A stretch of 64,000 bases of DNA from Marsupella aquatica (lineage: Eukaryota; Plantae; Marchantiophyta). A program made the position numbers and the translations under genes. The DNA lies in the NCBI GenBank assembly GCA_973895155.1, contig OZ316891.1:21899168-21963167 (forward strand), given 5' to 3'. Shown here piece after piece: positions 5,561 through 60,899 of the stretch; the stretch's first letter is position 1; the number at the start of each line of letters is the position of its first letter. The notes under the pieces were generated by a model. It saw nothing but the letters and a program-made list of their open reading frames with translations, was not told where the DNA came from and searched no databases.

Positions 5561-5940
5561 AATCTGGAGATGCTTGGTTGAGCCAATTGCAAGTGGGATT
5601 TAGTGGACCTGTGGGAGGTCCTAAATCTACACCATTGTCTTTGGCAGCATTCAGTAGTTTGATTATTGGATTTGATGAGTTGATTAAAGGTAATGCACAT
5701 GCAGCAGATGTTCCGGCAATGGAGGAGCCACGTGAGGAACACATGACGGGTGTATTACTTGTTGATACTATTGTGGCACCAGTACGGGGTACTGGAGAGG
5801 CCTTGCAACAAAATGTGACCCAATTGATACATGATGCCTGACGTCATGCTTTTACACCGGAGTCAGGAGCACAACAGTCTTTTGCAGATGGACCGGTAAC
5901 CCTTTCACCATTGGATACCACTCCTATTGTGTGGTAGTAT

Positions 5941-6990
5941 CCAGAGGAGGGTATTTGTTTGTTAGATTTATTTTGTGGGATTGGCACTGGATTGGCTGCT
6001 ATTCTTCAAGCAGGAATTTCTGTGCGTCGTTACTTGTACGTGGAAAACAATGAGATAACACGGAGGATCTCACTATGTCATGTAGCGATGTTGGTGGAAC
6101 GTTATCCACATTTGTTGCCAGTGGATGCCATTCGTGGTTATCAGCATGCACTACCTGCTGATATTTCATTATTGGGGCGGATCATTTGGATTGTGTTGGC
6201 CCCATTGATTTGGTGATTGCGGGTTGGCCATGTCAGGGTCAATCTCGGGCTAGAATTGGACATGGATTTCAAGATCCAAGATCTACATTATTTTGGGAGA
6301 TGTTACGTGTGTTGCGCCATCTCCAGATGCATCAGACACATTCTCCTACATACATTTTGGAGAATGTCCCATTATTGGGTGATGACCGTCATCGAATTGT
6401 TGCTAGTGTTCATCAGGTTCGATCTTGGATTGGGCCTGTTGTGTTATTGGATGCTGCACGTGTGGGTTCTCGTGCACATTGCCCACGATTATGGTGGACT
6501 AACTTGTTACCATGTGAGGTCTTAAAGTGAGCATTTGATGGTGTACCTCGCTCAACAACCTTAGTGGTGGATAGTATTTTGGATCCAGGGTGTCGTGCAC
6601 AAAGTGTTACCCAATCTGATCAACCACCATTGGCAGTGGTGAATGTTGTTGGGCGTCCACGTTGTGCATTACCCACTTTTGTGAGCCATTCTACTTCATA
6701 CGCATTTTGAGCAAGTGGCCCTGGACTTGTGTGGGATACAGCTCTACAACAACTAGTAGAGCCTACCGCTAATGAGAGAGAGCGACTATGGGATTTTTGA
6801 AAAAAAAATAAAAAAATAAAAAATAAAAATAAAAATGAGAGAGAGCGGGCTATGGGATTTTTGACCAGCACCACGGCAGTGGCCTCGGTGTCAGAGCATT
6901 CACGTTGTTAGGTCCTTGGTCAAGCCATGGATTTGAATTGCTTGACTTGGATAATCAGCTTGGGATTAGCTGAACAATTGCGAATGCGCA
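5941..6990 (+). pseudogene. DNMT3-like C5-cytosine DNA methyltransferase domain inside the retrotransposon pol
   Basis: Motif I LDLFCGIG, II YLYVE, IV AGWPCQG, VI ILENVP, VIII DAARVGSRAHCPRLWWTN, IX ERERAMGF, X LGQAM, in non-permuted order. One frameshift (~6180), several stops and an A-rich insertion. Confidence 0.88.
6771..6864 (+). repeat. A-rich ~33-bp insertion flanked by a ~30-bp direct duplication
   Basis: aatgagagagagcg(g)rctatgggatttttga at 6771-6800 and 6834-6864, around an (A)n/TAAAAA tract. Confidence 0.75.
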
Positions 6991-22034: not shown

Positions 22035-22881
22035 AACACGATTTCGGACCGAACGAGAACTATTTCCTCTAAACGAGAAGTGTATTTTTATTTTCCGCCG
22101 AATTTCGGCAGCTTTTTTCATCAAAAACGCGTTTTTGGGGAAATAATGTAATTCGTATCGGAGTTCGGATTGAAACAACAAATTTAATAATGATCAAAAC
22201 CAATGAAATTCATGCTAACAAATATTTATATTATCAAGGAACAATTAGATCCGAAAAAATTTCTCCTCGACCTCATATTCACGCTCTCCGAAGATATATG
22301 AAAGGTCTTATCTATAAATCCATATCCATGTTTCGAGCCAAGTGCGATAACTGTATCGGACTCCGGATTTGAGCCACGAAAACTCCGACCCAATCTCAGG
22401 TTTCTCAGTTTTTGGATATTTACCAAAAATATTTTACATCACAGTCGATAAGAATTACTGCACGGTTCGTCAAATTTACCTTGCAGTTACCTCCGCAATT
22501 GACCAGTTACCTCCGCAAGTGACCATAGTCAACATGCCATTCTTTCAACAGCAATGCGCAGTCCGATAAAATTATCGCGAAAACTATGGGCGACAAAAAT
22601 ACTAGTTGACAATACTAAGATCCTTCGGTTCATCGGTTAAATTTCAAAATTCCTATCCATATGAAGAAAACTCTTCGCAATACCAACATCAGATAAATTT
22701 ATCGCTTCAATTTCAAAATTGCAACTTCCATATGAAGGAACCACTTTTGCAATACCAACATCAGATAAATTTATCGCTTCAATTTCAAAACTATATAATT
22801 TTTCCACGATGCACGTGTGAGAATGAAATTGGAAATCCAAGAAATATACCCTTTTCTGCTATTTTGTCGTTTAGGGTGACA

Positions 22882-22931
22882 GCCAATCAAAAGTGGACAC
22901 GTGGGCCAACCCCTCAACAGACACTATAAAA
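22882..22931 (+). promoter_or_regulatory. Candidate core promoter of the transposase (CCAAT, CACGTG, TATAAAA)
   Basis: Three canonical boxes within 50 bp, about 150 bp upstream of the ATG at 23076. Confidence 0.35.
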
Positions 22932-23075
22932 GGGCCACCGCCGATAAGTTTTTGGTGTCATTATCGAGAGTAGAGTTTTGGGAGTTGTGTTCTTGGAGCA
23001 ACATTCTGTCCGTTGAGCCTTTCGTTTTCCCTGATTGTGGGAGGAATGCAAAGCCCCATAGTGTCTCGGATAGCC

Positions 23076-26000
23076 ATGTCTCAATCAGACACAGATTCAC
23101 CTTCCAGTTCAGTTGAATCCTCTCCTAATCTTGTCGCTCGCTGTTTGCCAAGTCGCATACTTAAAGCTCTACCTCTCTCACAGCAAATAGTGCCCGAAAT
23201 CTCTGACTCAGATTCTGATGCAAGTTCTGGTCCTGAGCCTAGTGCTTACTATGTGTCGCCTAGTAAACCTGAGAAGCGTCGTCTCTTGAGCGTTCCATCA
23301 CCAAGAAATGAGAAACTTTCAATCCCAGGTTTAGGTCCGAGACGTCGCTTCAGGCCATCCATCTCGGGTTATGGAGAGGGTATCCGGCGACCGATATGCG
23401 TATCGCAGTCGGCATTCAAGTTGCCACATTCAACACAAGTTCAACGACGGATCTTTCAGTCTCCGGGTGAGGATCGGGACACAGAAATACAAAGACCGAT
23501 ACGGCGATCGGTCTTTGCATTGCCTGGACTGGATGTGCGAGCAAGCGAGGGAATCGGACTGCGAAGTCCAGACTCGGCCCTTTCTCGAATGGTCCATGGG
23601 AATCATGGTGAACAAGTGCTCAATTTTCCAGCAGCTCGCGGAGTCGTTGGGACTGCACGTGCGAATCCAGAATCTCCAAGTTCTCAAGGGCGAACTGTCA
23701 TTGGTTCCAGGCTCCAAGTATCGAGGAGAGGTCTTAGTGGCGTTCGGGTTATGTATAGAGAGCCACGGAGTCCAATTGTGTTTTCAGATGAGTCGAGTGC
23801 ATCGGAGAACGAAGATGAGGAAGGAGATAGAGAATCCGATATAATAGCACAAGTTGTGTCTGAATGTTTGGAAGGAGCTGTCGAAGAGAATAGCTATAGT
23901 CGTCTATTCAGTGCCCCTCTAAATGCGTCAAGGAGATCTATAGAGGATGGTAGCTCAGCAGAGAGTGATGCATCTATTCGCGAGGCACCTGAAGGACCCG
24001 AAAATGCCAATGTTATGAACGGATTTCAGGTTGTAGAGAAGTCAAATGAGCCTAGTAAAAAAGATAGGGACCGAATTACTAGGAAAGACAATGTGATAAA
24101 TGACAAATTGAATAGAAACAAAATGAGAGAAATTCATAAGTATTCGTGTTGTGATAATTATTGTCTGCGGAATTTGGGTCTGCTAGTCATGATGAAACAA
24201 TGCACTTATTACTATGGGCTATCCTACCCAGAGAAGAACGTCCTTCTAAGAGGATGTGTGAAGGGTGGGCATGCTGGTGCAAGTGGTTACTCAGTTAGTG
24301 GTAGATCCTTTTGTCGAAGTGGTTTTAAGAAATTATTTTCACTGGAAAATAATCATCTCCAAAAAATCTCGCAGAACATGTTTTCTCGGATACAGATCGA
24401 TACAGTTTGTCGAGAAAAATCACCCGCACATCTTGGTCTCGTCCAATGGCTGGATGATTTTTTTTCCACAAATGTCGAGAGTCTCCCCAACAAGGATATC
24501 TTTCATTTACGTGACAATTGGACAAAAACAGAGGTTTTTGATGCCTTCCAGTCCGAAACTCTAATGCGCCAAGAATAAGGCATGACATATTCATGGTTTG
24601 TTCGCATTTGGAACAAGGAGTTTCCTCGCGTGCGCATCCCCAAAAGGAGCCGTTTCTCCACCTGCGCCCCGTGTACTGAATTCAAAGCACTCCGTGACAA
24701 GGAAACACTCGAAGCATAAAAGAGTAAATTTCTAAACCTGTGTGTTACTCCCGATAATTTTATCGGGTTGAGTATTCATGTGCTTCTTCTTTGGCCATGT
24801 GAGTGAATATATCGTTTGAACAGTTTGAATACTGAACCTAATAAATTTATCGCTGTCACAGTTTTTCATTACGGTCTTGTGTTTGAATACTGAACCCGAT
24901 AAATTTATCGTTGTCAGGGTTTATCATTACGGTCTCGGGTTCAACATTGCGGTTATCATGTTTTGTCCTAAAATTTTTTATTGTTGTAGGAAAATTCTCA
25001 ACATTGCTAAACGAGCATCGGAAGGCACAAGCAGTCGAGAGGGAGAAGTTAGCAAAGCACCGGAGCAAATGTTACAAGAGTCCAGAGAAATATTTGGGCA
25101 TCTGTATTGATGGAATGGATCAAAAGAAGACAGAGTTACCTCATTTCATTCGGTGTCCGAAGAATATGGATGAAAAGTATTTCATCCCCGTACACGTAGT
25201 GGGTTGTTTGATCTTCAACAAACAATTAAGTTCAAATGTTTTTTTGAACTATCCAAATATTCACAATGATAGCAACCTGACCATCCACGTTATCCAGCAT
25301 ATTCTAAATACCTGGGAAGGTCTGCTCCCTCCAGTGCTTTACCTCCAGCTTGATAACACAGCTCGGGAAAACAAGAATAAATATCTTATGGCATATTTGA
25401 ATATGTTGGTGGAGATAGGTGTTTCCCAGAAAATAAAGGTTGGTTTCCTATTGGTGGGGCACACCCATGATCAAATTGATCAAATGTTTAGCAAGTTTTC
25501 TTCAAAATTGAACAAGCGGAAAGCTTTCCGGTTGGACACTCTTTCAGCAATCATAGAGGAATCCTACAATCCTACGGCAAAGATATTTTTCGTCGACGAG
25601 GTTGCCGATTTCAAGAAATTTGTGTCAGACAAGGATCAAGCAAATGACAAGGATATGGATGGTCAGGTTCTACGTACTCTCCACGGCATAAGTGCTCAAA
25701 AACAATTTCGGATTACTAGAGTACTCGAAGATGGAAGTGCTCGGTCCGTATTCCATGCCAAACATCTTTCAATGACAATCGATTGGGGGGAGACGGTGGA
25801 TTTTGTTCGGTACATTCCATCATCTGGAATGTGGGTCGCACCACAAATGGCATTGAAGTCGGCCACGGGAGCGACAGGAGACAATGAAGAGCAAGAGAAT
25901 GATGCTGAGGAACAAGATGAGCGGGCGGCTCAAAGTTATTTGTCAACTCTTCAAAAATATCAAAGAGCAATTGAAGATGGATTCAATTACTTTGACGACG

Positions 26001-26599
26001 CAGATCGACTATGGTGGGGTCGTTTTTTTGACAAACAAAAAGAAGTGATTCAGCACCACCTAAAACCTGCACAATGGAGTTTTGATTGGAGTTGGCCCAA
26101 GGTAAACGTACAGAGAGAACTTCCGAGTAATCCTACGGAAGCAGCAATGGAATCTAGCTTGGTTGATAAAGTAGCGGGTGTGAGGACAGTCATGTATTCT
26201 GGAAGTCGAAGAAAAGTCACGGAAATTGGAGACTTCAAGGATCTAGAGGTGAATACTAAATTTGCAATGATATGTGTAGCAGCCCATCAGGATCCCAAGG
26301 GAAGACCATTCTGGATGGCAAAAGTGACTGAGATTATCACAAGAATTAACGACATCCCGGAGCGGATTAAAATCACTTGGTATGCAATGGATTCGGAGGA
26401 AGAGTCTGCAATTGAAGGCAGATATTATCCGGAGAAAGAGGCTTCGTCTAGCAAAGTACTGGAGGATGAATTGTCCCTATCAGAAACTCCCGTTTATGCG
26501 TATAACTTTGCGTTATTGGCAAATAGTACTCTCCCTATACAAACAAGATGAATCATTCAAAATGCAATGGAGACTGTAGTCGTTGATAGTCGAAGCTAG
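23076..26599 (+). pseudogene. DDD-type transposase (Sola1/DUF7869-like), 2 exons (23076-24723, 24990-26599), three in-frame stops
   Basis: CCDNYC and FSTCAPC Cys motifs; catalytic-type IDGMDQ, LQLDNTARENKN, FLLVGHTHDQIDQMFS. A GT-AG intron restores the frame. Stops at 24576, 24717 and 26549 are consistent with C-to-T changes. Confidence 0.8.
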
Positions 26600-26927
26600 T
26601 TTCAGGTTTAAGTTATAATGGTTATCGTTCCCATGAATATGTACAGTGGTTATCGTTCTGGGACTATGTACTCCGAAGCTATAATGATATCTTTTTTTTT
26701 AAATAATTGCAATGACGAACCAGTTAGAGAATACAATGCTGTCCGATAAGATTATCGACAACTCCATTCCCCCAGCAGGAACACCGCGACAGTCCGATAT
26801 ATGCAAAGTCCGATAAATTTATCGCATTAATAAATGTGACAAAGGTTCTTCCTCATGGAATACAGAAGTCGATAAATTTATCGACAACTTCATTGGTGAT
26901 TGACATTATCCTAACGAGCACACGCAA

Positions 26928-29900
26928 CTAATCTAATAACATGTCGTTGAGATCATCCTCATTTGGTGTTCTGGGAGGCTCTTCCTCAGTTTCTTCTTGT
27001 TCCTCTTCGGTCTCCTTCACGACCTCAACTACGTAAGTCGATGTCCCGAGTACACCCAATTGGCCTGCAATTGGTGGTTGAATCTCATGACCTTCAACGC
27101 CGTGCCCTTCAATCTGGGATTCTTCATATAAATTCCAGTTTGACTCCAGAATCATGATCCGGGATTTTACAAAACCAATCTGCGCAGAACTCTTATCAAC
27201 AGCACAACCCTGGCAAGAATTGAGGAGCGTAGCAGCTAATGTCAATCCGGTTCCACAACAAAGATCAATAACCCAATCCTCTTTCTTATAGAAATGGGAA
27301 ACAAACCAAGCCCCTAAACCAACAGGCTTCTGATATGGGTTCACAACAAATCCCAACGGATCAACGGACTTCTTGGTTACACATGGAACCTTGATGATAT
27401 TGACGCGAGACTCATCCGGTTGGAAATTGTACATGTTCATGTTCCGAATGCCTTCCTCGCTATAGAAACCTATCGACCAGTTCTCAAAACCCCACGCCAA
27501 TCGAGCTCCAGCGGGACGCTCATGAATGTTAGTCTTCTCCCAGATTCCAGCCTCGACCCCACAGTTGCATACACTCTCCAGTGCAGACATCACCATATGC
27601 GTTTGTTGTAGTGAATGGATCACAACAAACCTCCACTGCTTAGCGGTCGTCATCTTTGAGAAACTTGTCAACATGTCTAAAATGTCCTTTTCTGTGAAGG
27701 CCACTTCATCAAACTCCAAACCAGGAGCATTAAAACCATACGAAATATCCGCAACCGCAAGGGTGTAAGCCCTTGGCTGAACAAAAGAATCCAAAATTCG
27801 AACATCACCAACATGGAGATAGTAGGGAAAAGAATCCCCATCTGCATTTTTCCATGTTTGTTCAAACGCTTCTGCTGTGCCCTCGCCTAAGGACCTCAGC
27901 CGATTGTACTTTTCGATTGCAGCAAGCACAAAATTCTTAAACACATAAGGGATTTCAGCTGAGGGAACAATAACCTCCCCCGCAGAATTATAAGTGACAG
28001 CCAAAACCACTTTGCTTTTCCTTTTTGAATTAATCTTCAGTTGTAAGAATGTCAGACACATCTACAGTTAGAATAGCGTGAGATGAATGCTAAGGCCGAT
28101 AAAAATCTCGCGATGGAGCACGCTAGCCAATAAATGGAATCGCTTAGAAACCAACAAAGGAATGCTAAAGCCGATAAAAATCTTGCGATAGAGCATGCTG
28201 TGAGAGGAATGCTTACCGCGTCACTCAATTTCTCCGCCCATATGCCAAGGACCAAGACATCTGTTTCGTTGGGAAACATTTCTCTGCATGTTGCCCAATC
28301 TGGCTGACCAGATATCTGCAAAAATAGTTTCTTCACCTTGGCAAGCTTTTTCAACTTCTCACCTTCCTTGTGCATTTGATCCAAAGTGATCACCTTCCCG
28401 ATAACCCTATTCAAGAGACGCTTGACATGCTCCTTATTTGACAGTCCTTGGAGACCTTGAAATGAATTTAAGTTGAGGTCACCAGCAAGTTTATTCATTT
28501 TAATCTCCCTTACCGTCAAAGGTTTCACCTTTCCCTTTGCGTTCGTTGTTGCCACAATTTTTTTGGGTTGTCCTAAGACAATACCTTTCTCCCACATCTG
28601 GAAAATCTGCTCCTGAAGATCCCAAATTTCACCTGTTCGGAAAGCAATTTGGAAAGCCGGATCATGTTTGGTGATGGAGTCACGAACTCCTGGCGTGTAC
28701 TCCATCATGCATTCTTGACAACATGCTTCGTGGACATCTTTAGTCGAGCCCACACCCATTTCAAGGAAAATATTGTGACAAGCGCGAACTTGGTCAATTT
28801 TAGTCATGTTCTTTCGATACTCCTGGTCATAGTTATGCTGGAAGCCTAACTTTCGGACCTCGGATCTCGTAAGCCCAGCGTAAACCCAAGCTTCCAGCTC
28901 ACCATATATTTGCTTCCCGTATATTTTAAACAACTCGGACTTTGCCCGAGCACCATGATTCCCTCCAATAATTCTATACTTCCATACCCTTGACTTCAGG
29001 ATGTCCCAATCTGCGGTTGTGGGACAATCCTTTGGATCCACACACAGCACGAACGGGGCACTGAAGTTGGTGGGGTTTTTCATGAGAAGTATCTTGATAT
29101 TTTCCACATGCAATCTATCCACTGGTCTAATCAAAGTTGTCAAATCCCCCTCCTCATCAAATATGAGATTGTCGACATGCAGAAGCACAGTTGTCCTTTG
29201 CACCCTTCGTTGCATCAGAAGACTGAGCTCTGCCTTGATCGCGTCCGTCTCATACATCGAAAGAGCCGTCTCCTCCTCCTGATCAGCCTACAAAAGCGTT
29301 GCAAATTCAATTAAGGAAAGAAACTATGAGATTTTTATCGGAGTTCGCATTTGTTCAACATAACTCCACAATCCACAATTCAGGAAATAAACAGCGAGAT
29401 TTTTATCGGATTTCGTGTTTGTTAAACAGTACAACGACGTAGTACTTACCAATGGCGCCGTAGGAACCGCGACTGGAACTGATGGAATTGACGGAGCTCT
29501 ATCTACTTCTGCAGCCACCATCTCAGTCCAGCCAGTCCTCTTCCTCTTTGTGCTAAGTCCAGAACCAGATGGCCCGGATCCCTCGGATCCTTTACTTTCG
29601 CTTGGTTTAACGGATGGTCCTCGATGGTTGCCCCGGCCTCTCCCACTACCGCCAGTTTCCTGGCTCTTCTTCCCACCGTCAGAGGTTCCCGCGGCATCTC
29701 CCCTGCCGCTACCTCTCCCTTTCCCTTTTCCACTTCCCGAAACCCGACCAGAAGTTGTAGGTTCGTCCACGTCAATATGTGTAGAGGATTGCAATGGTTC
29801 TTTCCGCCCCGATATTTTATCGGCATTAGAACCACCACTTCCACTTGAACCTGGTTTCTTGAAAACAATTTTGCGGACAGGTTTGAACTCTTCACCCACA

Positions 29901-30418
29901 AGTCTCTTGTACTCTGCGTTTACCCTTGGAAGCATGATGGCATCACAATCTTGCACATACTGGCCGATCCAAGCCGAACCCATAACATTCATCTCTCTTG
30001 CTGCGTGAACATCGGCAACAAGGGGATCTTCTAGATAACTGTCCATCGATTTCTCATCAAAGGTATCGAGAGTAACAATGAGAGATGTGAAACCCTTGCG
30101 CCCACACATTGTCAAGAAACTAAGGCCCTCTGTCAACACTTTTCCCTCCCCGTGGCCAACCATGAACTCGACGACGGCAACAGCAATGACAGGGCCATAC
30201 GAAACATTAACCTTCGTCCATTTTTGCAACTGGACCCAAAGGATTGGGGTAACACAGTCTTCGAAACCCGTGGACTGTAATCTGGCATCACGGAAGTACC
30301 ATGACTTCTTGATACACTTGATCTCTTCACAAATGTCTTCACTTGTCCAAATTGCATTGGTGAGGCTTGTCATGAGACTTTCTGCCTCAGCAGATCCACT
30401 CTTTCCACTAGTAGCCAT
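26928..30418 (-). CDS. ~1050-aa ParB/Srx-like + beta-class amino (N6A/N4C) DNA methyltransferase-like protein; exons 30418-29450, 29287-28217, ~28034-26928
   Basis: Phase-0 GTAAG donors join three ORFs in frame; the last acceptor is weak or mutated. ParB-like RPVD..HV..I, YRIIGGNHGARA. MTase LHVGDV, LAVADISYG (motif IV), IWEK, NPYQKP, VIDLCCGTG, CAVD. Confidence 0.75.
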
Positions 30419-30638
30419 GGAAAAGTCTGCAAATAAACAAATTCCAATGCAAAGAGCGATAAAATTATCGCCGCCAATCTCACAGCACATGTGGACACGA
30501 CATCTCATCACACAAGGACAAAGAGACCGATAAAATTATCGCAAAAGTGAGCCTTCTTTAAATTGACGGCCGAGTGTATAGGTCGAAGAATCAGCTACGG
30601 AACCCTAAATCCAAAACCTTAACCCCTAAACCTAAACC

Positions 30639-31070
30639 CTAATCATAGTTGAACCTCGCCAGAGCGAAGCGTTCGATCCGCTTCTTGGGCCATTGGGGAA
30701 TATGAGTGACGCGATGATCATAAGCCCACAGCCAATGGAAATCAACTTCACCAGTCTCAGGATTCACTACTGCTACTGAATACCGGCGTGACGGAATGTC
30801 ACAACAAGCATTTGTGCAGCATGGACAGATCTCACCATTGGCAAGGACGTTCGTCCACAGGCAACTTACATAGATCAAGTTAAAGAGCCCACAGACCGGC
30901 TGGGGGGGGAGTTGACGAATCTTGTATGAATATAGTTTCCCACCAGTGTCAATAAAAAACTCGGTGGCAAGAGGATTGTCCAGCTCGTCAATCACATCCT
31001 GAATCTCATCGAATGCTCTACGTCTATTGTCGGCATAGAATTTTGGCTCATAAGCAGGATTGCCCTTCAC
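30639..31070 (-). CDS. Hypothetical Cys-containing cargo ORF (possibly an exon or fragment)
   Basis: 143-aa ORF with protein-like composition (CPCCTNACC), same strand as neighbouring cargo; no ATG start. Confidence 0.35.
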   Translation of the reverse strand: MKGNPAYEPKFYADNRRRAFDEIQDVIDELDNPLATEFFIDTGGKLYSYKIRQLPPQPVCGLFNLIYVSCLWTNVLANGEICPCCTNACCDIPSRRYSVAVVNPETGEVDFHWLWAYDHRVTHIPQWPKKRIERFALARFNYD

Positions 31071-31644
31071 AACATGACACCAGTGGAGTATAAAATGTCT
31101 TACTGCACCGGTTTTCAGAAAGAGTAGGATAACTCTTCTAGAAAATCCAACATATCTATCCCACCGAATATAAATTTCTCCCCCTACCTAATCTACGTAG
31201 AAGTTTAATGCGTTATGGTAAAACGGTTTTACTACCAGCCTGCATATCTTTAAAATTAGTGACTCATCCAGCCTCCTTAGCTGGTCTAGCATGGCTCCAT
31301 TCCCCCATTCTGGAGGATCCGGGAAGGGTTCAAAAATGCGTCGCTCGAGCATGGCCTGATCACCGAATAGAAATCAGGAATAAATTTTGGAGAACATACT
31401 AATTACAATTCTACAAGTTTCATCCAACTTTACAGTACCTTGTATAACGGGCTGTGAAGCCAATGCACTTGTCAGCTAATCGTCCGAAGAGGCGCAAAAA
31501 AATACACTCTGGACCACACAACCCGAAGTCAGGGGAGGCAGAGTCAATTATATTCAAAGTGTTTCTTTACAAGCACCCAAAATCGACTAGAGGAATGAGG
31601 AGTGCGATAAATTTATAGGATGTTCGCTGCAATGCCTCATCCAC

Positions 31645-32193
31645 TCAAACTCGTCCATGCCATGCAAGAATTGTTCGCTTCCCGCTTTCTCCAAGATTCA
31701 CCCAAACTCTAAGAAACGCATCTAATCGGTCATACGAGAAGCACCCAAGCATATCTATGGGAGGGAGGAAATGAGTTTCCTCTCGGAAGACCCTAGCAAT
31801 ATGTAGGTTTGAGAGAAGGACGACATTAGGAATGCTTGCGAGCATTTTGTTTATGTCATTGATCTCACGGACTGCATATTTCAATAGCGCCCAAAATCGT
31901 GTACCAACAACAAGATGGTTCCATTTCTTCGAGGTGGCTCCAAGACAAATGATTGTTCTCATTCGAGTCAGTCGTTCTTCTGGTAGAAGTTTTAGGTCAA
32001 GGCCAAGGTGTTCATCTTGTGTGCAAGACAAGGCTAGGAGGGGCCAAATGTGAGATTCAACGAGTTCATCGGGAAGTCCATTCAACAAACTTCCGCATTC
32101 CACACCGGGAACTTTTCCTCGAATATATTTCCTACGCTCGTGGGCTAAAACGGATCCCATCTTTGCAACGATTAGATTCTCCGATGCAGCCAT
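31645..32193 (-). CDS. Small F-box-like protein (182 aa)
   Basis: LNGLPDELVESHIWPLL ... LGATSKKWNHLV..TRFW fits the F-box pattern LPDE...I...L / V(S/C)K.W..L....W, with an insertion. Confidence 0.55.
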   Translation of the reverse strand: MAASENLIVAKMGSVLAHERRKYIRGKVPGVECGSLLNGLPDELVESHIWPLLALSCTQDEHLGLDLKLLPEERLTRMRTIICLGATSKKWNHLVVGTRFWALLKYAVREINDINKMLASIPNVVLLSNLHIARVFREETHFLPPIDMLGCFSYDRLDAFLRVWVNLGESGKRTILAWHGRV

Positions 32194-33589
32194 GAAGCAG
32201 AGCTACCAAAACCACCAATAAAAATACCTTCAATCACCAGGTGTAACCAAACACAGTACCAACCCTGCACGACAGTTTAACGATTAGGACTCGTGACGTA
32301 TTATATTCGCTGCGCAAGGGTAGGACTTGTTTATTTAAATATGTCCTTCCAAGATGCGCCTCAATGAAAAGGTCGAAACACTCATCGTGAAAGGTTCACC
32401 CAAGGGTCTTCGTTCCAAATCTTACAACAGAAGTGAGCCTGTTTGTGGTACTTGTTATCAAGACGACGACAACAATAGTTACAAGAAAACTCCAAAGAAT
32501 GTAAACACGCCGCTAACATCAACCTCGAACGAATTGGAACTCCTGCATCATTCATTCCGCAGAATTCAATGCGGAGAGGATTCTGCCTATCTCCAGGATC
32601 AGTACCACCCATCCACAATGCAAAGATGGGATCCGTTGCAACGAGCTCAAAGACCTTCCTCGGTCAAAGAATCTGATGAGTGGATGAAGGGCCTTATCTC
32701 TAGCTAGCGGCCTTTGTTTGAAGCCCATTGTTTCCAACAGGAAATCATTGACAGAGACTGGATTTGATCTGGGGTTCATTTATCTCGCAACTGGTCTTTG
32801 TCCTTCCGTCACTAACATATCCATTCCTGAGTGGAACATGTGGCCGGTTGGATTTGCTTCCAAACCATTTTTTTAATATCTCAAAGCAGTATCTCTCAGA
32901 TGATGGGTTTTTGGCGGTTCTTCATAGTAGTCAATTTGACCACACCACTGCAATTTATACCGCTGCTCAATCACAAGGACATTTCAAGCCAGTTTGCTCT
33001 TAGATTGTTCTTCTCTTGACTCCTTTATTCAATGGAACCTCAGATATCACGGTAAGTCTTGAGCCTTCATAATTGTTTATAGCAAACTTGATTCGCTATT
33101 ATTGATAGCGAACTTAATTTGCTATCAATCTGCTTGTGGAAAAGTCTGCCTCACATATTGCTTAATGTACTGATGATTTGTATTCTTGGCATGAAACATG
33201 TTTTCAATGTTGTTTGGACTGGTGGACAGGGGGTGATACCAAAATATGATAAGTTTGTCCCCCTTTCAAGTTTAGAGGATCCCTCATTGTAGACTCTTAT
33301 TAGTCTCATGATTCCTGGGTGTGTGGGGGATCCAGATATGGGATTTGAGGGTTCCGCCCGCGTATCCATAATTTGGGTTAATGCAGACCGTGATTGAGCT
33401 GCTCACTTGCCCTTCAGATGTTGTTTTTGATTGGACTCTTGGGGTTGCAGCTTTCTTGTGGGAGAGTATTTCGGGAGATTTGCCACCGGTCTTGAAGATC
33501 AGGATGAATTTGGGGATTCCACTGAACTTACAGTCGCTGAAAAAGGTCCTGGACAGGAACTGCATAGCCTGGTTGTTTTATTGGTATTA

Positions 33590-33830
33590 AGAGAGGACTT
33601 AAAATTTCATGTGTAAGAACATAAGGGTACTTTAAAAATTAATTTTGAGACTTATGGGAAAACTAAGATTGGGTTTCAGAAACTAAATTTTGGAAAATTC
33701 TAACCATATTCTAAATTAGTAGCCAGGGTAAAAGAATTCAAATTTATATTGCTAGTTAAGTTTAGATACAAGACCTAAACACAGTGATCTGTGGGGCTCC
33801 ATATAATGAGAATCCAGAGAGAAATTAAAC
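33590..33830. mobile_element. Degenerate copy of the CTCGGGGG MITE family
   Basis: Collinear similarity to 13530-13755 (gacttaaaattt...aattttgagacttat...ccatataatgagaatccagag); TIR and TSD eroded. Confidence 0.55.
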
Positions 33831-33849
33831 CAGAAAATGGGGTAAGAAC

Positions 33850-35194: not shown

Positions 35195-37752
35195 ATGGAA
35201 GTAGTAGTCACAGGCAGGGTCATGGGTGGTCAATCTGAAATGTCATTGCCGACCGGGGTAAGGTATTTGGTGTGTACTCAGTTTCTGTCGCGCTTCTCGG
35301 TGAAAGGAACCCAGGCGGTTCTTGTGCTGTTTCTATTTGAGCATGTGCGGCTTTCGGAGAACCTCTCCGCGGAGCTCGTGCATATCTTCCTTACTGTCAC
35401 GAATTTCGGTCCAGTTCTTGGTGCTGTTCTCGGCGATGGCTATTTGGTAAGAATTCCTTCCAGATTACGCAGCTACTGGCTAATACCGTTTATCGAGCAG
35501 TCGCATTCGAAAGAGATCCGCCCTTGCCTTGGGTATCTGTAAAGATGGCTGCCTCGCACCTTTGCATTTGTGTTTTTGCTTAAGTGCAATACTTTCATAC
35601 GTTCTCCTAAGATCTTGTACTCGTCGTGTACCCTTCTTGATTACAGGGAAAGTACCGTGCATTGTTCTGTTGTGTATTAGTTCAGCTGGCTGGCATGGTG
35701 ATACTGGTCTTAGGGGCTATGCCTAGTGCAGAGACAGGATGGAGAATCCCAATGGCCTCTGTTTCAGTGCTTGGGCTTGTGGTCATTGCCTTGGGTGTCG
35801 GTGGCAGTAAACCTTTAATACCAGCTTTTGGAGGAGATCAGATCGAGGTACTGGTATCCGAAGAGACAGAGAGAGACAGGTTGAGGCCGCTCTTCTTTTC
35901 CCTTTGGTACGTAGGTTTGAATTCTGGATCTTTTTTAGCTACAGTAGCTATTCCTCCGCTTCGAACATTGGGTTCTTACGGCTTGATTTTCTCCGTGCAA
36001 ACTGCCGTTTTAGTGGTATGTTTTCTGGTGTATTGGCTTGGAAGAAATGATTATGCTCATCTCCAAGTCAGAGAAAATGTGGTTGTGAAGGTTGGCACAA
36101 TCATTATTGATGCGTTGAAATCTTGGACAAATAAAGAAGCAAGAAAACGGAGAGCAGGAGAGCTTGACTTATCAGAAGCTGGAGAGCAAGAGCATATCTT
36201 ACCAGAAAATGACATTGTGGACAATGGTCGACTGGCCATCGCTACAGGTGACTCCAAGTATCATTGGCTAGACGATAGCAAGCTGAAACATGATGCTACT
36301 GCAGTAGATGAAGTCAAGCTCCTGCTTCGAGTGTTGATCCTGTTTACCCCTATGCCTGTGTTCTGGGCTCTTTTTGAGCAGCAGTACACCAAGTGGGTGT
36401 TCCAAGCCCGTTCGATGAATCTCGAAGTGGCCTGGCTTGGTGGTCTGGTTCTGCAACCAGAACAAATCCAGGTCCAAAATCTTCCTTAGCTGGAGTTCAA
36501 AATCTATGTATTCAGTATTGGAGTCTGAATGGTTGTAATCTATATGTTCAACGGTAGGATCTCTAGGGCAGTTGTCGCACTTACTGCCTGGTTGTACTAT
36601 TCATTCATCAAGATGTGAGCACTGGATAGGGAGCGCAAGGACTAGGGTTCAGAATACATAGGAAAGGATTGAAATTTTTGTGGTGCTCTGCAGGCGCTCA
36701 ATCCACTGCTTGTGTTGATAATTATACCGACTCTTGATAAGGTCATCTATCCCTTGTTTACGAAATTAAAGATCCCATTGCCACCGTTGTCGAAGATGAT
36801 TCTCGGGATGGCCTCTGCAGTGGTGGCCTTTATTGCCTCAGGTGTCTTACAGCTTCTCATTGACAGCAGTCTGAAAAGTAACTCAACTGCTCAAACAGCA
36901 AGGCTATCTGTATTTTGGCAGGGGCCACAGTATCTTTTCATCACTCTTGCAGAGGTACTGATCAACGTTACAGGCCTAGAATTTGCTTACTCTCAGGCAC
37001 CATCATCTATGAAGTCGTTGCTGCAGGGTTCATGGCAAGTTTGTCAAGCCATTGGTAAGACTATTGGGGCTTTAATTCTCTTCCCTCGCAATGCAACAGT
37101 CTAGGGGTTGAGTATTAGCAGGTCCTTACCACTAGAACCCTGGAATCATTCTTAATTCCCTTTTCCCATTATTCACGAAGCAGTTGTGTCCCCTTCTTTA
37201 TCTGATGCAACTGACGCAAAAGAATGATTTATATTTCCAAAAATGCCAAACTTGAAGAGCAGCCTTTCTGTGTTGTCTGTTTGGTATTTTAAAAACACAA
37301 CAGCATTTTGGTGAGAATTTTTGTGCTCAGAGCTTTCAGGAACTTTGATTTTCTTGGGATCTCAAATGTACGAAGAAACTAAGGTAGCCGCCCTCGAGTT
37401 GGTCGTGCGTTTTACCGTATCTGATGTAGAATGTTGGTCTATTTGTCAAACTCTGTCCATATCTTGTGTAGATTGAAGGCATTTTTCTCTTGAGTGTCAG
37501 CAATATGCATGTTATTCATTGTTACTCACGTGGATTCTGTTTGCAGGCGACTTCATGACTGCTTTAATCATTGCCCTTATCGGGGAGAGACTCTCAAAAG
37601 CAAATGAGTTTTTCCTGTTCGCTGGAGGGTGTGCAGCTGCAATGTTGTGGCTAATCTGGATTGCGCGAGGCTTTGATGACAGTAAGCTTTTTGTACCTGC
37701 TAATCCTCATCCAATGGTTGCAGAAAGCACCTACTTTGGCTTGGTTGAATGA
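35195..37752 (+). CDS. POT/PTR-family (SLC15/PepT-like) peptide transporter, 547 aa; exons 35195-35446, 35647-36471, 36694-37054, 37547-37752
   Basis: Three GT-AG introns give a stop-free 1644-nt CDS. Motifs GAVLGDGYLGKY, IALGVGGSKP..AFGGDQ, FFSLWY..LNSGS, FWALFEQQ, PEQIQALNP, GLEFAYSQAP.SMKS. Confidence 0.92.
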
Positions 37753-43753: not shown

Positions 43754-45747
43754 TATAAGCATTCAACAGGTGCGGATGTGGCATAGGAGCGACTGTGTAT
43801 AGAGTTGTGCATAGGAGTAAAGTTACATCATCAGTTATCAGTCGTTTCCATTAGTTGACCTGATATCAGTCGCCACATCATCTCAGAGAGGCCGCCAAGA
43901 TGCAGCGCCGAAAAAAATAATGAAAATTCTCAAAATTTGATGAAGAAAAAAAAACTTTTTTTGAATTTTTTTCACTATGGGTGTCCGTACCGTACGGGCA
44001 TCACTTCTCGGCGGGGCCAGCCGAGATGGCCAGGTGTCCATAAGGTACGGACACAAAATTTTGGCGATTTTTTTTTAATTTTTTAATTTTTTCTGTTTTT
44101 TTGTCCGCATGCCGATCTCGGCGAGGTCAGCTGAGATTGAGTCAATCTCAGCCGCCTAGCTGAGATGCATGGAAGTGCAAAGTTGTCATCTTAGCTGCTT
44201 AGCTGAGATTAAAAAAAATTGGCGGAAAAATTGATAATTGATGATCCTCGCTACTCCCGTGCATAGCATCGTTTGAATCATGTTTGTCGTAAGCTTGTTG
44301 AATGTGAGCTTGTGGGACTTGTTGCATTCCTAGAAGAAGAGAAGTTTGTTGGTGTTGTTGCAATTGTTGTCGATCTTGTTGATTTTCTACAGAGCTCAAA
44401 GAGTTCAGCAGATTGGACATGCTGGCACTGACCATGCAATGTTACAATAGAGTTTATAGGAGGAGAACATTTCCGCTTTTTCTTCCCATACACAACCCCT
44501 TGAGCTTTTGCCTGCATTTTGTGCACTTCTCTAACATATAGACGGACAAGTTGAGCTCCAAATGGGTTGGACTCAGGCTTTCCTCCGTGCTCTTTGAATC
44601 CAGCTTGGAGAGGCCCTATCAGCGCATTGAGAGAACCCCAGGCCTAGCGCAGTGGGCACCGGCAAGGGTTGGGAGGGCGTCGACATCCCTCAAGTGACGT
44701 TGCTTGTTGTGCAATCCCTGTTGTGTTGTTCCTGGAGCAGCAACCATCACTCCATATACATCCGTGCACATCCACTGGAAGTTTTTAGACTCACTGATGA
44801 TGATGAGACTTTTGAACAAACTGCTCTTGCAATCCAGTGCTTATGCGCGCATGCAACTGTGATCAATTTTGTTGTCCAAGTGATACCAGGCCTACGGTAA
44901 AGCTACGATACTCCTCCCTCCTCCTACCCTCCACCTCTTCCTGTAGGCTGTAGCAATAGGCTGAAAGAATGTGTCCAGAGAAGACCGCAGCTCCCAGCAA
45001 ATGGCTATTCTAATCCAGTTGTGGAGAATTTTATACGGTACCTCTTGTGCACCTGTAGAATGTGTTTCTAGTTTAGTAAATTACTACCATGGCAGGCCAC
45101 CCTACCTTAGGCGGCTGCCTCCTCCTACAGTAGACCTCACAAACACAAATTTGACCTTCGATCAGTCTATTATGGGCCGAATGTGCTCCTTTGCGAGTCA
45201 AGAGAACTATGTTTGGCTCAAACATTTTTTATCTCTTAATCTAACCATATAATTGATTTACTCTGTGTTTGGCTGAAGCATTCTTTATTCAGCCATAATG
45301 TAACTACACAATTGGTGCTTAATAGTTTCCCTACTGTTGCAACTGCAGTAGCTGGAACGCTATCTAGCCTGGCTTGGGAGAATGAGCAACACGCGAGGCC
45401 CAGAACGAGCCAAGCATCGAACAAGCCAAGCATCGAGGTCTTGTTGTTGAGTTTATTGTTAGTGTGGAGGTAATTAATTTATATTTGCCTGCACAAGGCT
45501 ACCTTGAAAGTTCTGTGAGATAGAATGATGTTGTGTTGCTCATGAGTCTGAGTCAATGCTCTTTTGTTGGCTATTTGACATGTTTATATTGTTCAGAGTA
45601 TGTATTGGAGTTCCTTGTAGATTGGCTCAATCTAGATAATTTTATTGATCAGTTTTAATTTTGCTTAATATTGGTTATTACGTACCTTGAAGGTACTAAA
45701 ACAATTATTACTGGAAAGGTAGTGTCCCACCAACACTCTTTGCAAAT

Positions 45748-46983
45748 TTGGCAGAGGTAGGCCATTCATGCTTAGCAGAAATGGATTTAACTGATGGAAT
45801 CCATGGTATTGGGAAGAGTCATAAAAAACATAAAAATATTTGGATGAAAATACATTTTTCAGAGGGATATCAAGATGCAGATTTCACAGATTATAGTGGC
45901 ATCAATACCAATGATGAGATAGTGATAGCATTGAAAGAAGGTTTTTCTTTGGCCCAAGATGCAGCTACTCTAGTTCAAATGAACCCCTCCACATCATGCA
46001 GAAATTGTATGTGGTGGACATCACCTTGGGCAGTAGAGGCAAAGCGAAGGGACCAAGGAGGTTGGTGTGACATTATAGTGGAGACTTTGCCTGTGGAAGA
46101 CCAACCTGAGTCAGAGCAGCAGCCACATCTTGTGGTGGGCTCCTCTGCTGCTGTTATTACAGAGGATATAGTTGAAGGAGATGGGGTGGCGGATGAAGTT
46201 ATTGCCCAAGGAGAACTCCAGGGAACTATCCGTGAATTGTGTGCTGAGTTGAATGAAGGTCCAGTAGTTCTTGGACAACCCAAATGGGTTCCCATGGTTA
46301 GTTGTGATAATTGTTATATATACAGAAGTACATTGGTGAGTCAACTAACTGGAAATCCTAGTCTTAGTAAGGATCGATTAACCAGGGTGAAACAGAGTGT
46401 TTATTTCAATAATCTGGTTGATAAACGATCAGATCAAGAAGGGGTTCCAACAATGTTCATGTCTTATGGTATGGACTGTGGAGTGTATTTTGTAGCAGAT
46501 CCACAACCTGGTAAAGAAACCAGGTCTCAAGGTCTACTGAAAGCATTGTCAAAGAACGAAAAAGGACAACCTACCTCAACCTCTGGAAGAAAAGTTTCAA
46601 AGAAGGGAGGCAGAGGTGAAGCTGTGTCTGTAGGATCCATTCCAAGAGTGGAAAAGTATGTTTGGTGGATTGGAAGAGTTCAAATGATTCGGAAAAAATA
46701 TATCAACAAATGGGGAAGATGCAGGGAACCTATTGACTTACTTGATAGGCCTGGCAAAGTGGATGATGGATCAGCTGCGTGTGAAGTACTGTTCAATTGG
46801 TTCAGTCCCTGTAGTGGGAGAACAAAATTTTGATATGATATGTGTGATCCTCAATGGATTGATTTGGACTGTGTTATATCCATAGTGAGCCTTTCAGTAG
46901 CTCCAGCTACTCCTAATGTGTTTGTCTTGCATGATCATGATGCAAGTTTACTTGATGATTTTGTAAAGAACAAGATCATATGA
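45748..46983 (+). pseudogene. C-terminal part of a large TE-encoded protein (probable transposase remnant)
   Basis: 361-aa ORF continues in frame past a TGA at 46831 to 46983. Conserved-looking blocks TLVSQL..NPSLSKDRLTRV, WWIGRVQMIR, WIDLDCVISIV. No catalytic core seen. Confidence 0.5.
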
Positions 46984-50134: not shown

Positions 50135-53100
50135 TCACACTTGGTCACCTTCAATGTCCTCTACATCTGACACAAAAATAGTGTCTGGCTTGTCTGAAAC
50201 AATGGAACGAGACCGTGGCACATATGTGATGACAAGTGACCACTCTGGGTCTAAGGGGTATGGAACGTAGAAACATTGCTCCAAGTGAGATGGGAAAGTA
50301 AATGGCTCTGACGTTTGCCAATGAGATGCTTGAAAACTAGTGGCACTTGTCCTCAACCGTGTAAACCCACTCTCATCTTGGAGTACAGTGCGATTATTAC
50401 CAACAAGGTTCACTTTGAACCACTTGCACTTGAAGACATACTCCTCAAACTTAGATTGGTTGTCATATGAGACCACCAAAATCTCCTCTATCTTCCCATA
50501 GTGTGGCACAACATCACGAACAATATTCCTGTCATGTCGGCTACTCCGGGAGTCCTGACAAAACTGCCCTTGAACTCCACAATCAAAAGTACGAGCCCTC
50601 TTCTGATCAAGGGAAGAAATCCTGAAATTAACAAGACCCATATATTGTTACTACTACACAAAAAACACTAATCATGTTATGAGGAACCTTTCATACCAAA
50701 AGAGAAAAACACACTTATCTAAGTAAAAGGATTACTATATCTTAAGTAGTAGTACATGAATATGGAAAACAAGGTTAGGAACTAGTGAAACCTGAAGTGT
50801 CTCCCTTGGGTCCACATGGCCGTCTTGGATGTTACCACTCTCAAAGGGCCATGAACAATGGTCCGAATGTCATTTGTCATAGTAGGAAACTGTGAGACAT
50901 CTCCTCCTTGTGCCAAAATGCAATCCAACTCAACCAACTTTTCCTTCATAAACTCATGCAACTTAGGAAAAATCCTTGCCCTTTGACTCATTCTTTTGGC
51001 ATTGTCATAAAACTCCCTCCATTCATCCATGACATTGCTATTACTCAACATGAATGTATTCAACTGTGTCCACTCTGTTGATGTAAGCATGCATGTTTTT
51101 GTTGCTCCTGTTAAACGGTCCTCCTCCTCTTGCCTCTCCTCCATCCAAGTACGTGGTAAAGTCCGATCAATGGTGGCCAAGATGTTACTACAATAAAACA
51201 TGCTCTCTGCAGCCAAGTATCCTGTAGCTATGCTTCCCTCCACTCGTGCACGATTACGTACATAAGCCTTCAAGACTGACATGTAACGCTCAAGCCAGTA
51301 CATCCATCGACAATGAACTGGACCAGCAATGGCAACCTCCCTCACAAGATGCACAAGTAAATGAACCTGACAATCAAAGAAGGAAGGAGGGAGGGCCTTC
51401 TCCAACTTGCAAACCACCTCAGCAGCCAATACCTCCATTCTAGGAATCTCTTCCACATATATCTCCTTTGAGCATATCCATCTCAACAAACGACCCAATG
51501 ACCAAATGGCATCTTGCACTTCTTTGGTCCCCAACCCTATAATTGCCACTGGCAATATATGCTGCAATAAGCGGTGATAGTCATGTGTCTTGAGATACCG
51601 TGGCCATTTGTGATTGTCCTCCATCCCAAAAGCTTTCCTCAAATTGGCACCATAGCCTGTAGGAAACCGCATCTCCCCTATACGATTCCGGAATTCACGT
51701 CTTTGGCCAACACTAAGCACCCAAGGAGTAGAAGGACGATGTTCCAAACCTGTGGCAGGATCAACTTGTACCCATACATCTGGATGCATTTCCAACTCTT
51801 CACATGCCTCCCTGAAGTTAGTGTCCTTCTCCCCATAAAAATGAGCTATCAACGCCTTCCCCACATTTCCCTCTATGTGCATGGGGTCTAAAAGATGGCG
51901 GATCTTCAACTCTGACCAATAGGGCAAACTGGCTAGTATACTCCACCTCGTCAACCCAGTACCATCAAAGGTGAGGGGATCATCAGGGTCTGCCACCCTA
52001 TCAGCTAGTGACTTCCAATGCCCAAAAGTTGTTGGTTCCGGAATTTCCCGCATATCACCAAGGGGCATGTCAAAGGAGGAAAATAAAAGTGGGTCAGACC
52101 TCATCTCATGCCCCATCGGAAGAAACTTTGTATGCCCAATGTAAACAATCTTCCTAAGCCATGGGGACCAAATTGCCATATCTTGCAATTGTGGACCACA
52201 GGTGGAGCAAGCTTTGTACCCCTGAGTTTGCAATCCAGAGACAAAGCCAAACCCTGGTTACACCAAAAATAAAACCAGACTAAATGTTAGGGTTGTCACA
52301 TGACAAACAAGTATATTAAAGAGCATATCAAAGAAGGGTGGCATATGGTCAAAAAGTCATCTTACCAGGATAGTCATGCATTGTCCAACAAACTACCCCT
52401 CTCAATTTAAATACACGTGGAATGCCTCCTGTATTTTTCCTGCCATCATATGCCCACACTCCACCCCATAGTTTTTGGAGTTCTCCAATCAATAGTGCCA
52501 AATAAGTGTCAAAGTTCTTCACCTTTTTTGGACCTGGAATAATCAAAGACAGCAAGAGGAACCCCTTCTTCATGGATAGCCATGGTGGAAGGTTGTAATT
52601 CATCACAACCACAGGCCAAACTGATGTAGGTCTTCCCTTGCCTCCAAGGGCATGAGGACTAACCCCATCAGATGCCAATCCCAACCTCACATGACGAGGA
52701 TCATGTGCAAAGTCTGGCCATGTTTCCTCAATATGTTTGACTGCAGGAGAGTCAATTGGCAACCGCATAACACCAGGCTCTGATCGATGAGTCTTATGCC
52801 ATACCATCAACTCTGCCAAATCAGAACACCTGTACATGTGCAACAACCGAGGAATGATGGGAAACCAACGAACAGCTTTTCTTGGCACCTTCTTTGTAAT
52901 CATGTTGGGGTCATACCGTGGCTCATGACATTCAGTACAATGTGTCTTCTTCTCATCGGCCCCATGAAATAACATGCAATCATTCACACATGCATGAATG
53001 ATATGATATTCCATGCCAATTGATGAGAGAACACGCTTGGCCTCCTTCCAAGTTCCTGGCAACACATTGCCAGAAGGTAACATAAGGTCATGGCAAAGTG

Positions 53101-54849
53101 CAAACATATCAGATAACAAGGCATTGCTTGCCTTGTGTTTGGCCTGTAGATTCATCAACCCCAAGATAGCAGAAAGACGACTCAAACGAGCACCCTCATA
53201 GATAGGAGTTCGGGCATGTTCCTCTGCTTCCTCCCATTGGCGCTGTCCCTCGGGGGTATGTCTTGGTCGTGGATCATTGGGGGGCACATGACCTCCTTGA
53301 TCAGCAGACACCTCAGCATCATCACCAGGGACGTCAACACCAAACCAATCAACCATAAAATCATCCATGGCTCTATCTTGGTCATCAATAACCTGTTCAT
53401 ATGTTCTGGGTACATTGCGATCAGGGTTGTTGCTTCCACTATCACTTGATGAGGAATGTGACTCAGAGCCTTGTCCTTCTTTCGGCATACCCATTTCCCG
53501 ATATGCTGCTCTCAATCTCCGCGGTAACATATTTTGAGAGGGTCGCACATTCTAAAAACAATGCAAACAATTGAAAGTTACAAAGCAAATAGTTACAACA
53601 TGTAGAAGAATATATGGGGGTGTGCAAACATGAAATGATATCGGTACTAGTGTAAATACAAAATGTGGCCAAACACCATGTGTATGGTCATTTTCTAATC
53701 CCACACATAGTGAGTAAACAACTCATCACCTGAGTGAATGGTCCTAGTAGCTACAACCAGACAATGGTGAGTCATGATGATATGTCTGGCCATAAGGGGC
53801 TGGTGGAGGACCCTCAATGAAAACCCACTCACAATTTTGCCTACGCTTGGGGCGAGTCCCCACAGTACTATTTATGAAACCAGCTATATTCCCAGTTCGT
53901 ATGGGGTCCCCATCTATCACCCGCTGCTCACTATACCTCCTAGTGTTTCCATCAAAAGTATCTAACTCCAAGGCATAAGTCTTCCACTCAGGATGTTGTG
54001 CAAGGATCATGTTCCAATGTCTTCTCTTGTAGATGGGTCCACCATAAGGAAACAACGTAGGTCCTTCTCGACCGCGTCCACCACTACCACTCTCGGTATC
54101 CACAATGATGTCTTCACAAGCAAAAACTCCATAGCCATGTCTATCCCCAAGTGTGGAAGGTTTGATAACCCAACGTCTTCCCCAAACCTCTACCTCCTCA
54201 CCATAGGAAAGCTCTTGTGGCAAACCAAGAGTCTGGGGATCCCAGTCCTTGATGATAGGAACACATCTGCCAGTAAACTCACAATCACCCCACCTACCGG
54301 TAACCACTGCCTTGTACAAATCAGTATCCCCTCGGGGCCGTCTCTTGGAACGCTTTCTCCCTCTTGGGACAACAGGCTCACCCCCAACTGCCCTAGGACT
54401 GGAGGGGGCTGTTGCTAGACCCAAGGCTTGTGAGAATGCATTGCCTATAGCATCTAGAACACCTTGTGATGGGACATAAGGTGCTGATGCCGCAGGTCTA
54501 GGCCTACTAGATACCTATTCCACCCAAACCAAAACAAACAACAAGAGGTGTGAAATTAAAAACCTTCACCATTGCGATGTGGAAATAGGGTAGAAACTAA
54601 GGCGTAAACACTTACCACATGGGATGAGGAAGCCCCTGTTGTATGACGTCCGTAACGTCCATATCTCTCAATATGCTGGGTGCATATATAGAACTTTTGG
54701 GAAACCTGACCCACGCATTTGGCACATTGGCAAAGCTGACGGGGTGGACCACGAGGAGGAGGTGCAGTCGTGTGAGGTTGAGGAGGAGGTGGTATATCTT
54801 CATTGGAGGAGGAAGAATCTGTGGTGGAGATCTCAGAAGATGAAGACAT
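50135..54849 (-). CDS. CACTA TnpD transposase; exons 54849-54616, 53551-52366, 52253-50792, 50621-50135
   Basis: CQCAKC...HIERYG transposase-associated domain; IHACVNDC, RLGLASDG, YNLPPW, WTMHDYPG, LDPMHIEGNV, LKTHDYH, FFDCQVHLLVHL, WMYWLER, FKCKWF, EPF. All splice phases are compatible and there are no stops. Confidence 0.9.
53695..54514 (-). pseudogene. SET-domain exon within intron 1 of tnpD (one 1-bp frameshift near 53770)
   Basis: IKPS..G..GYGVFACEDI, FPYGG, YAL, IDG...GNIAGFINS, NCEW; after the frameshift, LVVATRTIHSGDELFTHY..stop at 53695. Phase-0 AG acceptor at 54515. Confidence 0.8.
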
Positions 54850-60744: not shown

Positions 60745-60899
60745 AGAAAATATATCTGCATACTGATCGTATTCATTGAGAAATCGTAAAGAGGAGATGG
60801 ATATTGATACTGATGCTCTAATTGTTAAACTTGAAGTATAATTATACAGACTATATTATATCAAATTGATAAGGTCACATTGCTCAATCTAGACCTTGG

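Follow-up and report, generated by a model that had tools for sequence, protein, structure and literature searches.

Why should a liverwort transposon carry a DNA methylase of bacterial type fused to a ParB-like domain, and what could such a protein recognize? The question arises in a stretch of 64,000 nucleotides of Marsupella aquatica (contig OZ316891.1, positions 21,899,168 to 21,963,167; hereafter the window), a repeat-rich region with long terminal repeat (LTR) retroelements, a CACTA element, and a POT-family transporter gene. An initial annotation had described there, facing a Sola-like transposase, three minus-strand open reading frames (ORFs) that would join through phase-0 introns into a protein of about 1050 amino acids. 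The element belongs to a known kind of transposon, in which a ParB-methylase is the accessory gene, and extends that kind to likely land plants; this copy is probably dead. New beyond the published design is a dispersed palindrome, AAT-N8-CGA-N8-TCG-N8-ATT, which is likely a candidate target of the ParB-methylase.

The three ORFs, spliced via phase-0 GT–AG introns, do give a protein of that size, with 1,048 amino acids. In intron 2, two acceptors are in frame (AG ending at 28062 or 28035, for 1,057 or 1,048 amino acids); the latter is favored because the acceptor of L001–L003 falls at the matching residue and because one relative (P0165) is continuous through the junction, without intron. L001–L005 are five metagenomic loci used for comparison. 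At every junction covered by their contigs, the homologous codon shows a GT or an AG; the acceptor AG of intron 1 is kept in all five and its donor GT in L001, L002, and L005. The exon 2 domain occurs in the same chain in 22 of the 150 methylase matches, and in 15 of the 18 that are at least 500 amino acids long. Named relatives come from Chara braunii, Riccia sorocarpa, Adiantum nelumboides, and Ginkgo biloba, and in those of Chara, Ginkgo, and Adiantum the ParB and methylase domains are fused in one chain. Co-splicing of the three exons is well supported, since the introns are conserved in place and one-chain relatives exist.

According to its predicted structure, exon 2 has a ParB/sulfiredoxin (Srx) N-terminal fold. 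A Pfam search gave no ParB match for exon 2; the ParB/sulfiredoxin-like core that had been claimed from the letters alone was recovered by structure search. With the exon 2 model (mean predicted local distance difference test, pLDDT, of 65), the best Foldseek match is Noc (7nfu, E 1.3e-5), ParB (6sdk) is at E 2.1e-5, and the top seven rows are Noc, ParB, and KorB. In VIA alignments, the core (model 31–158) superposes on Caulobacter ParB (7bm8) over 99 residues (Z 8.8, root-mean-square deviation, rmsd, 2.2), and a longer alignment with 6sdk covers 146 residues (model 30–313; Z 9.0, rmsd 8.8). The alignments to ParB and Noc reach the DNA-binding region (Z about 9), there in a part of low pLDDT and at rmsd 8–12. 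The conserved N-terminal domain of exon 1 is 32–33% identical to those of L001, L002, and L005. Searches found no family for it: a GNAT reading, suggested by eye from a GxG pattern, received no support in the searches, and the matches to PPR are summed weak repeats.

The model of exon 3 (pLDDT 88) is a beta-class amino-methyltransferase fold, Rossmann-like and with permuted motif order (IV before I), as initially read; all the motifs then quoted were located in the sequence. Its best fold match is CcrM (E 4.8e-13), and PvuII and N4CMT are also in the list. With the family profile, the top matches are M.BceJIV (E 9e-21), DpnA-type enzymes, CcrM, RsrI, and MboIIA, with E-values of 1e-21 to 1e-16 for enzymes methylating adenine at N6 (N6A) versus 6e-6 for PvuII and 1e-5 for N4CMT. 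Exon 3 itself scores 16.1 bits with Pfam N6_N4_Mtase (PF01555), below the cut-off of 26.7, which 18 of the 23 relatives tested pass.

Of the 150 methylase matches, 97 extend over the motif IV column, where the family consensus is D-x-P-Y, present in 64 of the 97 (DIPY 27, DAPY 9, DVPY 8, DLPY 7, DPPY 6, DFPY 5, DTPY 2). The DISY of the present copy is found in none of these 97 relatives, and SPPY in none of the 150. The motif that binds S-adenosylmethionine (SAM) is kept among the relatives. At the variant codon (27743–27741), TCG here corresponds to CCG, CCA, and CCT in L001–L003, which bears out the proposal that DISY is one C-to-T step (CCG to TCG) from DIPY. With DISY, the methylase of this copy is probably inactive; L002 appears intact, with an intact-looking motif IV. 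Because D-x-P-Y prevails, SPPY is absent, and N6A enzymes lead the profile and fold searches, N6-methyladenine (6mA) is a better guess for the product than N4-methylcytosine (4mC). Second codon positions (0.10–0.30) are far less diverged than third positions (0.54–0.66, near saturation, with synonymous divergence saturated), and this shows, as read from the codons, that the protein has long been under purifying selection.

The convergent ORF belongs to the DUF7869 family (Pfam E 2.6e-48). Judged from its stops, the transposase of this copy is broken; contigs matching the element read C at the stop at 24576. Three candidate catalytic aspartates are visible by eye. The assignment to Sola1 is likely and rests on resemblance. 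The claimed linkage of gene and transposase recurs elsewhere: in L003 the transposase C-terminus is encoded on the opposite strand (E 2e-57), and in L002 the last 21 transposase residues stand at the contig end, opposite the gene (E 8e-4). The L001 contig stops ∼360 nt past the stop codon, just short of the usual transposase end, and those of L004 and L005 break off within exon 2. Linkage is thus seen in two of five related loci, which are the two that reach far enough. The C-terminal domain of the transposase is conserved (26201–26548 and L003:2994–3539); by eye it looks BAH/Tudor-like, a reading that Pfam did not support.

Among contigs with 98% identity or more to the element, depth is 866–933 (X1) and 510–520 (X2), against a baseline of 62 (X1) and 13.5 (X2) for contigs over the transporter gene; contig depth is not equal to copy number and is read here as multicopy state alone. 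The summed depth is high from about 22,170 to 32,620, and the multicopy unit holds the transposase, the ParB-methylase gene, and two small ORFs. The view of the gene as transposon cargo is supported. A search of the element for terminal inverted repeats (TIRs) gave none above shuffles (best score 28 vs. a shuffle mean of 27), no target-site duplication (TSD) was found, and both ends of this copy look disrupted. Beyond the right edge, depth is low (32621–33840) and other contigs diverge at 32621, so that this end is probably rearranged; an ORF there (32752–33003), methylase-like by eye, matches neither the family profile nor Pfam. Contigs of X2 and X4 skip 1,276 bases at 23473–24750, with higher depth near both ends, which suggests that internally deleted, nonautonomous derivatives exist.

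The element contains a palindrome that is rare outside it. CGATAA-NN-TTATCG with at most one mismatch occurs 12 times in the window, always between 22345 and 31618, for 0.01 expected. The simpler frame CGA-N8-TCG has 14 sites in the element and two in the other 53 kb of the window; approximate dinucleotide shuffles of the element give a mean of 1.8 and a maximum of 6. Twelve of the 14 sites lie outside the exon table, which leaves 29% of the element noncoding. The same frame is enriched in related loci (observed/shuffled 12/1.1 in L001, 22/1.3 in L002, 8/0.9 in L003, 4/0.5 in L005, and 0/0.1 in L004), where the sites are also mostly noncoding. Just the 8-nt spacer is enriched, with other spacer lengths reaching at most 6. 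Both introns of the accessory gene are filled with sites in each subfamily having full introns. The core differs between subfamilies: TAA-WW-TTA here, mostly GAC-NN-GTC in L001, L003, and L005, and TC[AC]AAACA in L002. In 67 of 120 arms, an AAT flanks the site on the outside at a distance of exactly 8 nt (other spacings, at most 5). In the full frame, the four triplets follow one another every 11 bp and share a face of the helix.

A second, distant member of the ParB-methylase family lies in the same window, on the minus strand (ORF 61152–63272; profile E 7e-9, PF01555 E 1e-4). It matches the family profile in its C-terminal half alone and has a palindrome of its own, GGAYRGAGAYCATCTCYRTCC, with eight sites, six of them in a 78-bp tandem array upstream of the ORF. 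It adjoins an NIF/FCP1-like phosphatase ORF (59983–60855), within a region extending from 59983 to 63760, and no DUF7869 ORF was seen beside it.

Table 1. Features of the ParB-methylase element, in coordinates of the window
Feature	Position	Strand	Remarks
Element, approximate extent	22035..32620	–	LTR-element homology ends at 22034; depth drop and loose end at 32621
CGA-N8-TCG sites (14)	22345..32387	–	CGATAA-WW-TTATCG as the most common core; AAT/ATT generally 8 nt outside
DUF7869 (Sola1-like) transposase gene	23046..26551	plus	predicted intron near 24738-24990; stops at 24576 and near 24718
Exon 1	30418-29450	minus	donor GT at 29449
Exon 1 content	29450..30418	minus	conserved ~180-aa N-terminal domain, then low-complexity G/S/K linker
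Intron 1	29288..29449	minus	phase 0, GT-AG; contains palindrome copies
Exon 2	29287-28217	minus	AG at 29288, GT at 28216
ParB/Srx core in exon 2	about 29200-28808	minus	contains GGNHGARA; by fold match
Helical region in exon 2	about 28807-28343	minus	aligns with ParB/Noc DNA-binding domain; by structural alignment
Intron 2	28035..28216	minus	phase 0, GT-AG; alternative acceptor ending at 28062; contains palindrome copies
Exon 3	28034-26928	minus	terminates at stop 26928
Predicted beta-class amino-methyltransferase, then acidic tail	methylase about 27833-27150, within exon 3	minus	by profile and fold
Motif IV, DISY	27738..27749	minus	by alignment of relatives
Motif I (SAM-binding), DLCCGTG	27246..27266	minus	by alignment
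Small ORF in multicopy unit	30639..31187	minus	no Pfam or PHROG match
Second small ORF in multicopy unit	31645..32202	minus	no Pfam or PHROG match

How would the protein and the palindrome work together? Tentatively, and at a little short of an even chance, we propose that a self-recognition like that of ParB and parS delivers an adenine methylase to copies of the family, with an anti-silencing effect on them. A palindromic site calls for a dimer, and the ParB-like domain is the proposed reader because no other fold in the element is known to recognize sites of this type. The ParB part would dimerize and its helical domain would read the inner 14-bp CGA-N8-TCG, as ParB reads parS. The adenine next to which the methylase domains would then be placed could be the A of CGA, on each strand, or lie one helical turn away in the outer AAT. 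Like VANC on VANDAL elements, occupancy together with the 6mA mark would act in trans and hold cognate copies open at their introns, promoter, and ends. Anti-silencing is proposed because the layout of the sites copies that of the VANC motifs and because VirB is an anti-silencer of the ParB family. With a DISY methylase and a broken transposase, the present copy would depend on others. A stronger form of the proposal, in which the palindrome cores have coevolved by subfamily within a fixed 11-bp-phased frame and a private, active 6mA mark counters silencing by 5-methylcytosine, we regard as rather unlikely.

Several observations weigh against the proposed self-recognition. In the exon 2 model, the pLDDT of the helical part is about 50–60 at residues 160–210 and below 50 at 210–273, and the profile match to the Spo0J DNA-binding region is weak (E 0.14). 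In the ParBs that form clamps with cytidine triphosphate (CTP), namely ParB, Noc, and KorB, an arginine patch GxRR (GERR) is present; at that position close relatives have GGNHGARA and distant ones GG[NG]H variants. CTP clamping by the exon 2 domain appears doubtful because GGNHG stands where the patch is expected. Exon 2 carries a stop in L001 and a frameshift in L003. Of the view that this copy is dead while the family is active, the first part stands as probable, together with the D-x-P-Y of the family, and the second finds no support in L001 and L003, with that stop and that frameshift. Tandem duplication accounts for part of the palindrome copies of an element, which are hence not independent, so the weight lies in the frame kept across cores. 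The observed/expected (o/e) CpG ratio is 0.83 in the element versus 0.33 in the CACTA element and 0.48 in a Ty3 pol region, but 0.85 in an LTR element; in the noncoding part of the element it is 1.21. These ratios are compatible with anti-silencing and not decisive for it.

Transposases can themselves be sequence-specific activators: in the accessible accounts of TnpA and of Mu transposases, these bind family-specific motifs and activate cognate copies. Binding of the palindromes by the transposase is the strongest rival, and we consider it unlikely. The palindromes would then be transposase-binding sites spread inward, which the dense sites at the left end and the half-sites throughout the element would fit, and the ParB-methylase would act elsewhere or without sequence specificity. 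Such a spread does not sit well with the filling of both accessory-gene introns in every subfamily with full introns. Also at odds with it, and in favor of recognition by the ParB-methylase, is the distant member at 61152–63272, one case of a palindrome of its own with no DUF7869 ORF in sight.

The methylase could also be a pseudo-enzyme throughout the family, the protein binding the palindromes and protecting by occupancy or by recruitment of host factors. The scarcity of canonical DPPY (just 6 of 97) speaks for this and against the proposed adenine methylation, as does the occurrence of DLPR, DFPC, and others; so does the match of the 61152–63272 member to the profile in its C-terminal half alone. 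Yet 64 of 97 relatives retain the D, the second P, and the Y, the SAM-binding motif is conserved, and most of the relatives tested pass the PF01555 cut-off, which makes a family-wide pseudo-enzyme quite unlikely.

If instead the enzyme wrote 4mC on the CG of CGA/TCG, it would block host CG methylation. The invariant triplets do carry CpG, which is abundant in the noncoding part, the fold matches include PvuII and N4CMT, and the methylase domain has switched repeatedly between 6mA and 4mC (PMC8885841, in the part available). In the available parts of the sources, (T)SPPY marks DN4MT1 and N4CMT and DPPY the bacterial N6A enzymes (10.1101/2021.02.12.428880, PMC8885841). The complete lack of SPPY and the far lower E-values of N6A enzymes make a 4mC mark very doubtful, and the comparison drawn at first with DN4MT1 and N4CMT as 4mC writers is not supported. 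A repressive mark of self-limitation (copy-number control), favored by the marking of transposons by bdelloid N4CMT in the accessible literature, is improbable with sites laid out as for VANC anti-silencing and CpG not depleted in the element.

The closest known system is Sola1-1_Ec32 of Ectocarpus, with a 1,104-aa protein of ParB and N4C/N6A methylase opposite its transposase (PMC12477816). Binding and modification of the element by its own protein have been proposed there already, and no test of this idea was found in the accessible part of that paper, which cites Iyer 2011 and Petroll 2025 for similar proteins in the transposons of green and of red algae. Sola1 transposons are given TIRs and a 4-bp target duplication; in the supplement, the best match of the Sola1-1_Ec32 transposase is Physcomitrella Sola1, with a 4-bp TSD (PMC12477816, as far as available). 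The present element shares with Sola1-1_Ec32, as described there, a product of ∼1,100 aa with ParB-like domain and amino-methylase, on the strand opposite a Sola1-type transposase. It differs in coming from a likely land plant, in its size (about 10.5 kb vs. 21.5 kb), in its candidate target site, and in the lack of any TIR or TSD found; the likeness drawn here is one of domain design. The stem “palindrom” occurs 0 times in the main text of PMC12477816, and literature searches did not bring up the target palindrome either; Iyer 2011 and Petroll 2025 may describe target sites. In the available part of Iyer 2016, no matching clade was found.

Other likenesses are partial. VANC of Arabidopsis VANDAL, in the available part of PMC5735166, has motifs in noncoding regions and a demonstrated activity, whereas the activity of the ParB-methylase is predicted. 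In both cases an accessory gene goes with short motifs that are specific to the family and concentrated in introns, spacers, and ends, partly in tandem; the VANC motifs are of 8–9 bp and nonpalindromic, and no methylase or ParB domain is described for VANC in that part. Shigella VirB is an anti-silencer of the ParB family that binds a parS-like site (PMC10653881, as accessible). With ParB/parS, Noc, KorB, and VirB the protein has in common the ParB/Srx core, a helical region that may correspond to a DNA-binding one, and candidate palindromic sites of similar size; it differs by the altered arginine patch, the fused methylase, the introns, and the absence of a ParA-like gene seen in the element. 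The methylase resembles M.BceJIV, CcrM, DpnA-type M1.HpyAVI, RsrI, and MboIIA in its fold, the IV-before-I order, and the W-x-K and QKP motifs, with 12–19% identity in the fold alignments and a motif IV that is mostly D-[IAVLF]-P-Y. Like Marchantia DN4MT1 and bdelloid N4CMT, it is a eukaryotic beta-class amino-methylase of bacterial origin; unlike it, those two are encoded by the host, carry (T)SPPY, and write 4mC, and the accessible texts describe no ParB domain in them. The nearest phage and plasmid matches (best 15 rows each) are 22–40% identical over parts of the methylase alone, and no relatives were found in viral or prokaryotic contig collections. A longer word search with exon 3 and a search with exon 1 likewise gave no match.

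A candidate site, three natural core variants with cognate proteins, and the intact-looking motif IV of L002 make the published self-marking hypothesis directly testable. If true, it would constitute a second, unrelated route to anti-silencing in the manner of VANC. It would also identify a 6mA writer of plant transposons together with its site, and a source of 6mA for the genomes of seed-free plants. The protein would be a DNA writer that is encoded by a transposon and specific in sequence, and would offer a methylase with site specificity for eukaryotic chromatin.

Elsewhere in the window, the POT/PTR2 transporter gene (35641–37752, E 6e-47), the depth baseline used above, has single-copy-like depth. 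A 377-aa ORF without Pfam match (45700–46833) lies between repeats. Inside the Ty3-like pol region, a short ORF (5938–6213) has a SAM-binding-like motif (profile E 0.01) and is, by eye, a fragment of a cytosine-5 methylase in a retrotransposon. CACTA/EnSpm transposase ORFs (Transposase_21, DUF4218) occupy 50135–54514, the strongly CpG-depleted region of the comparison above; one ORF there (53744–54514) is SET-like by eye, without Pfam match. The CACTA region and the ORFs at 60–63 kb may belong to a single large element that an LTR element has interrupted.

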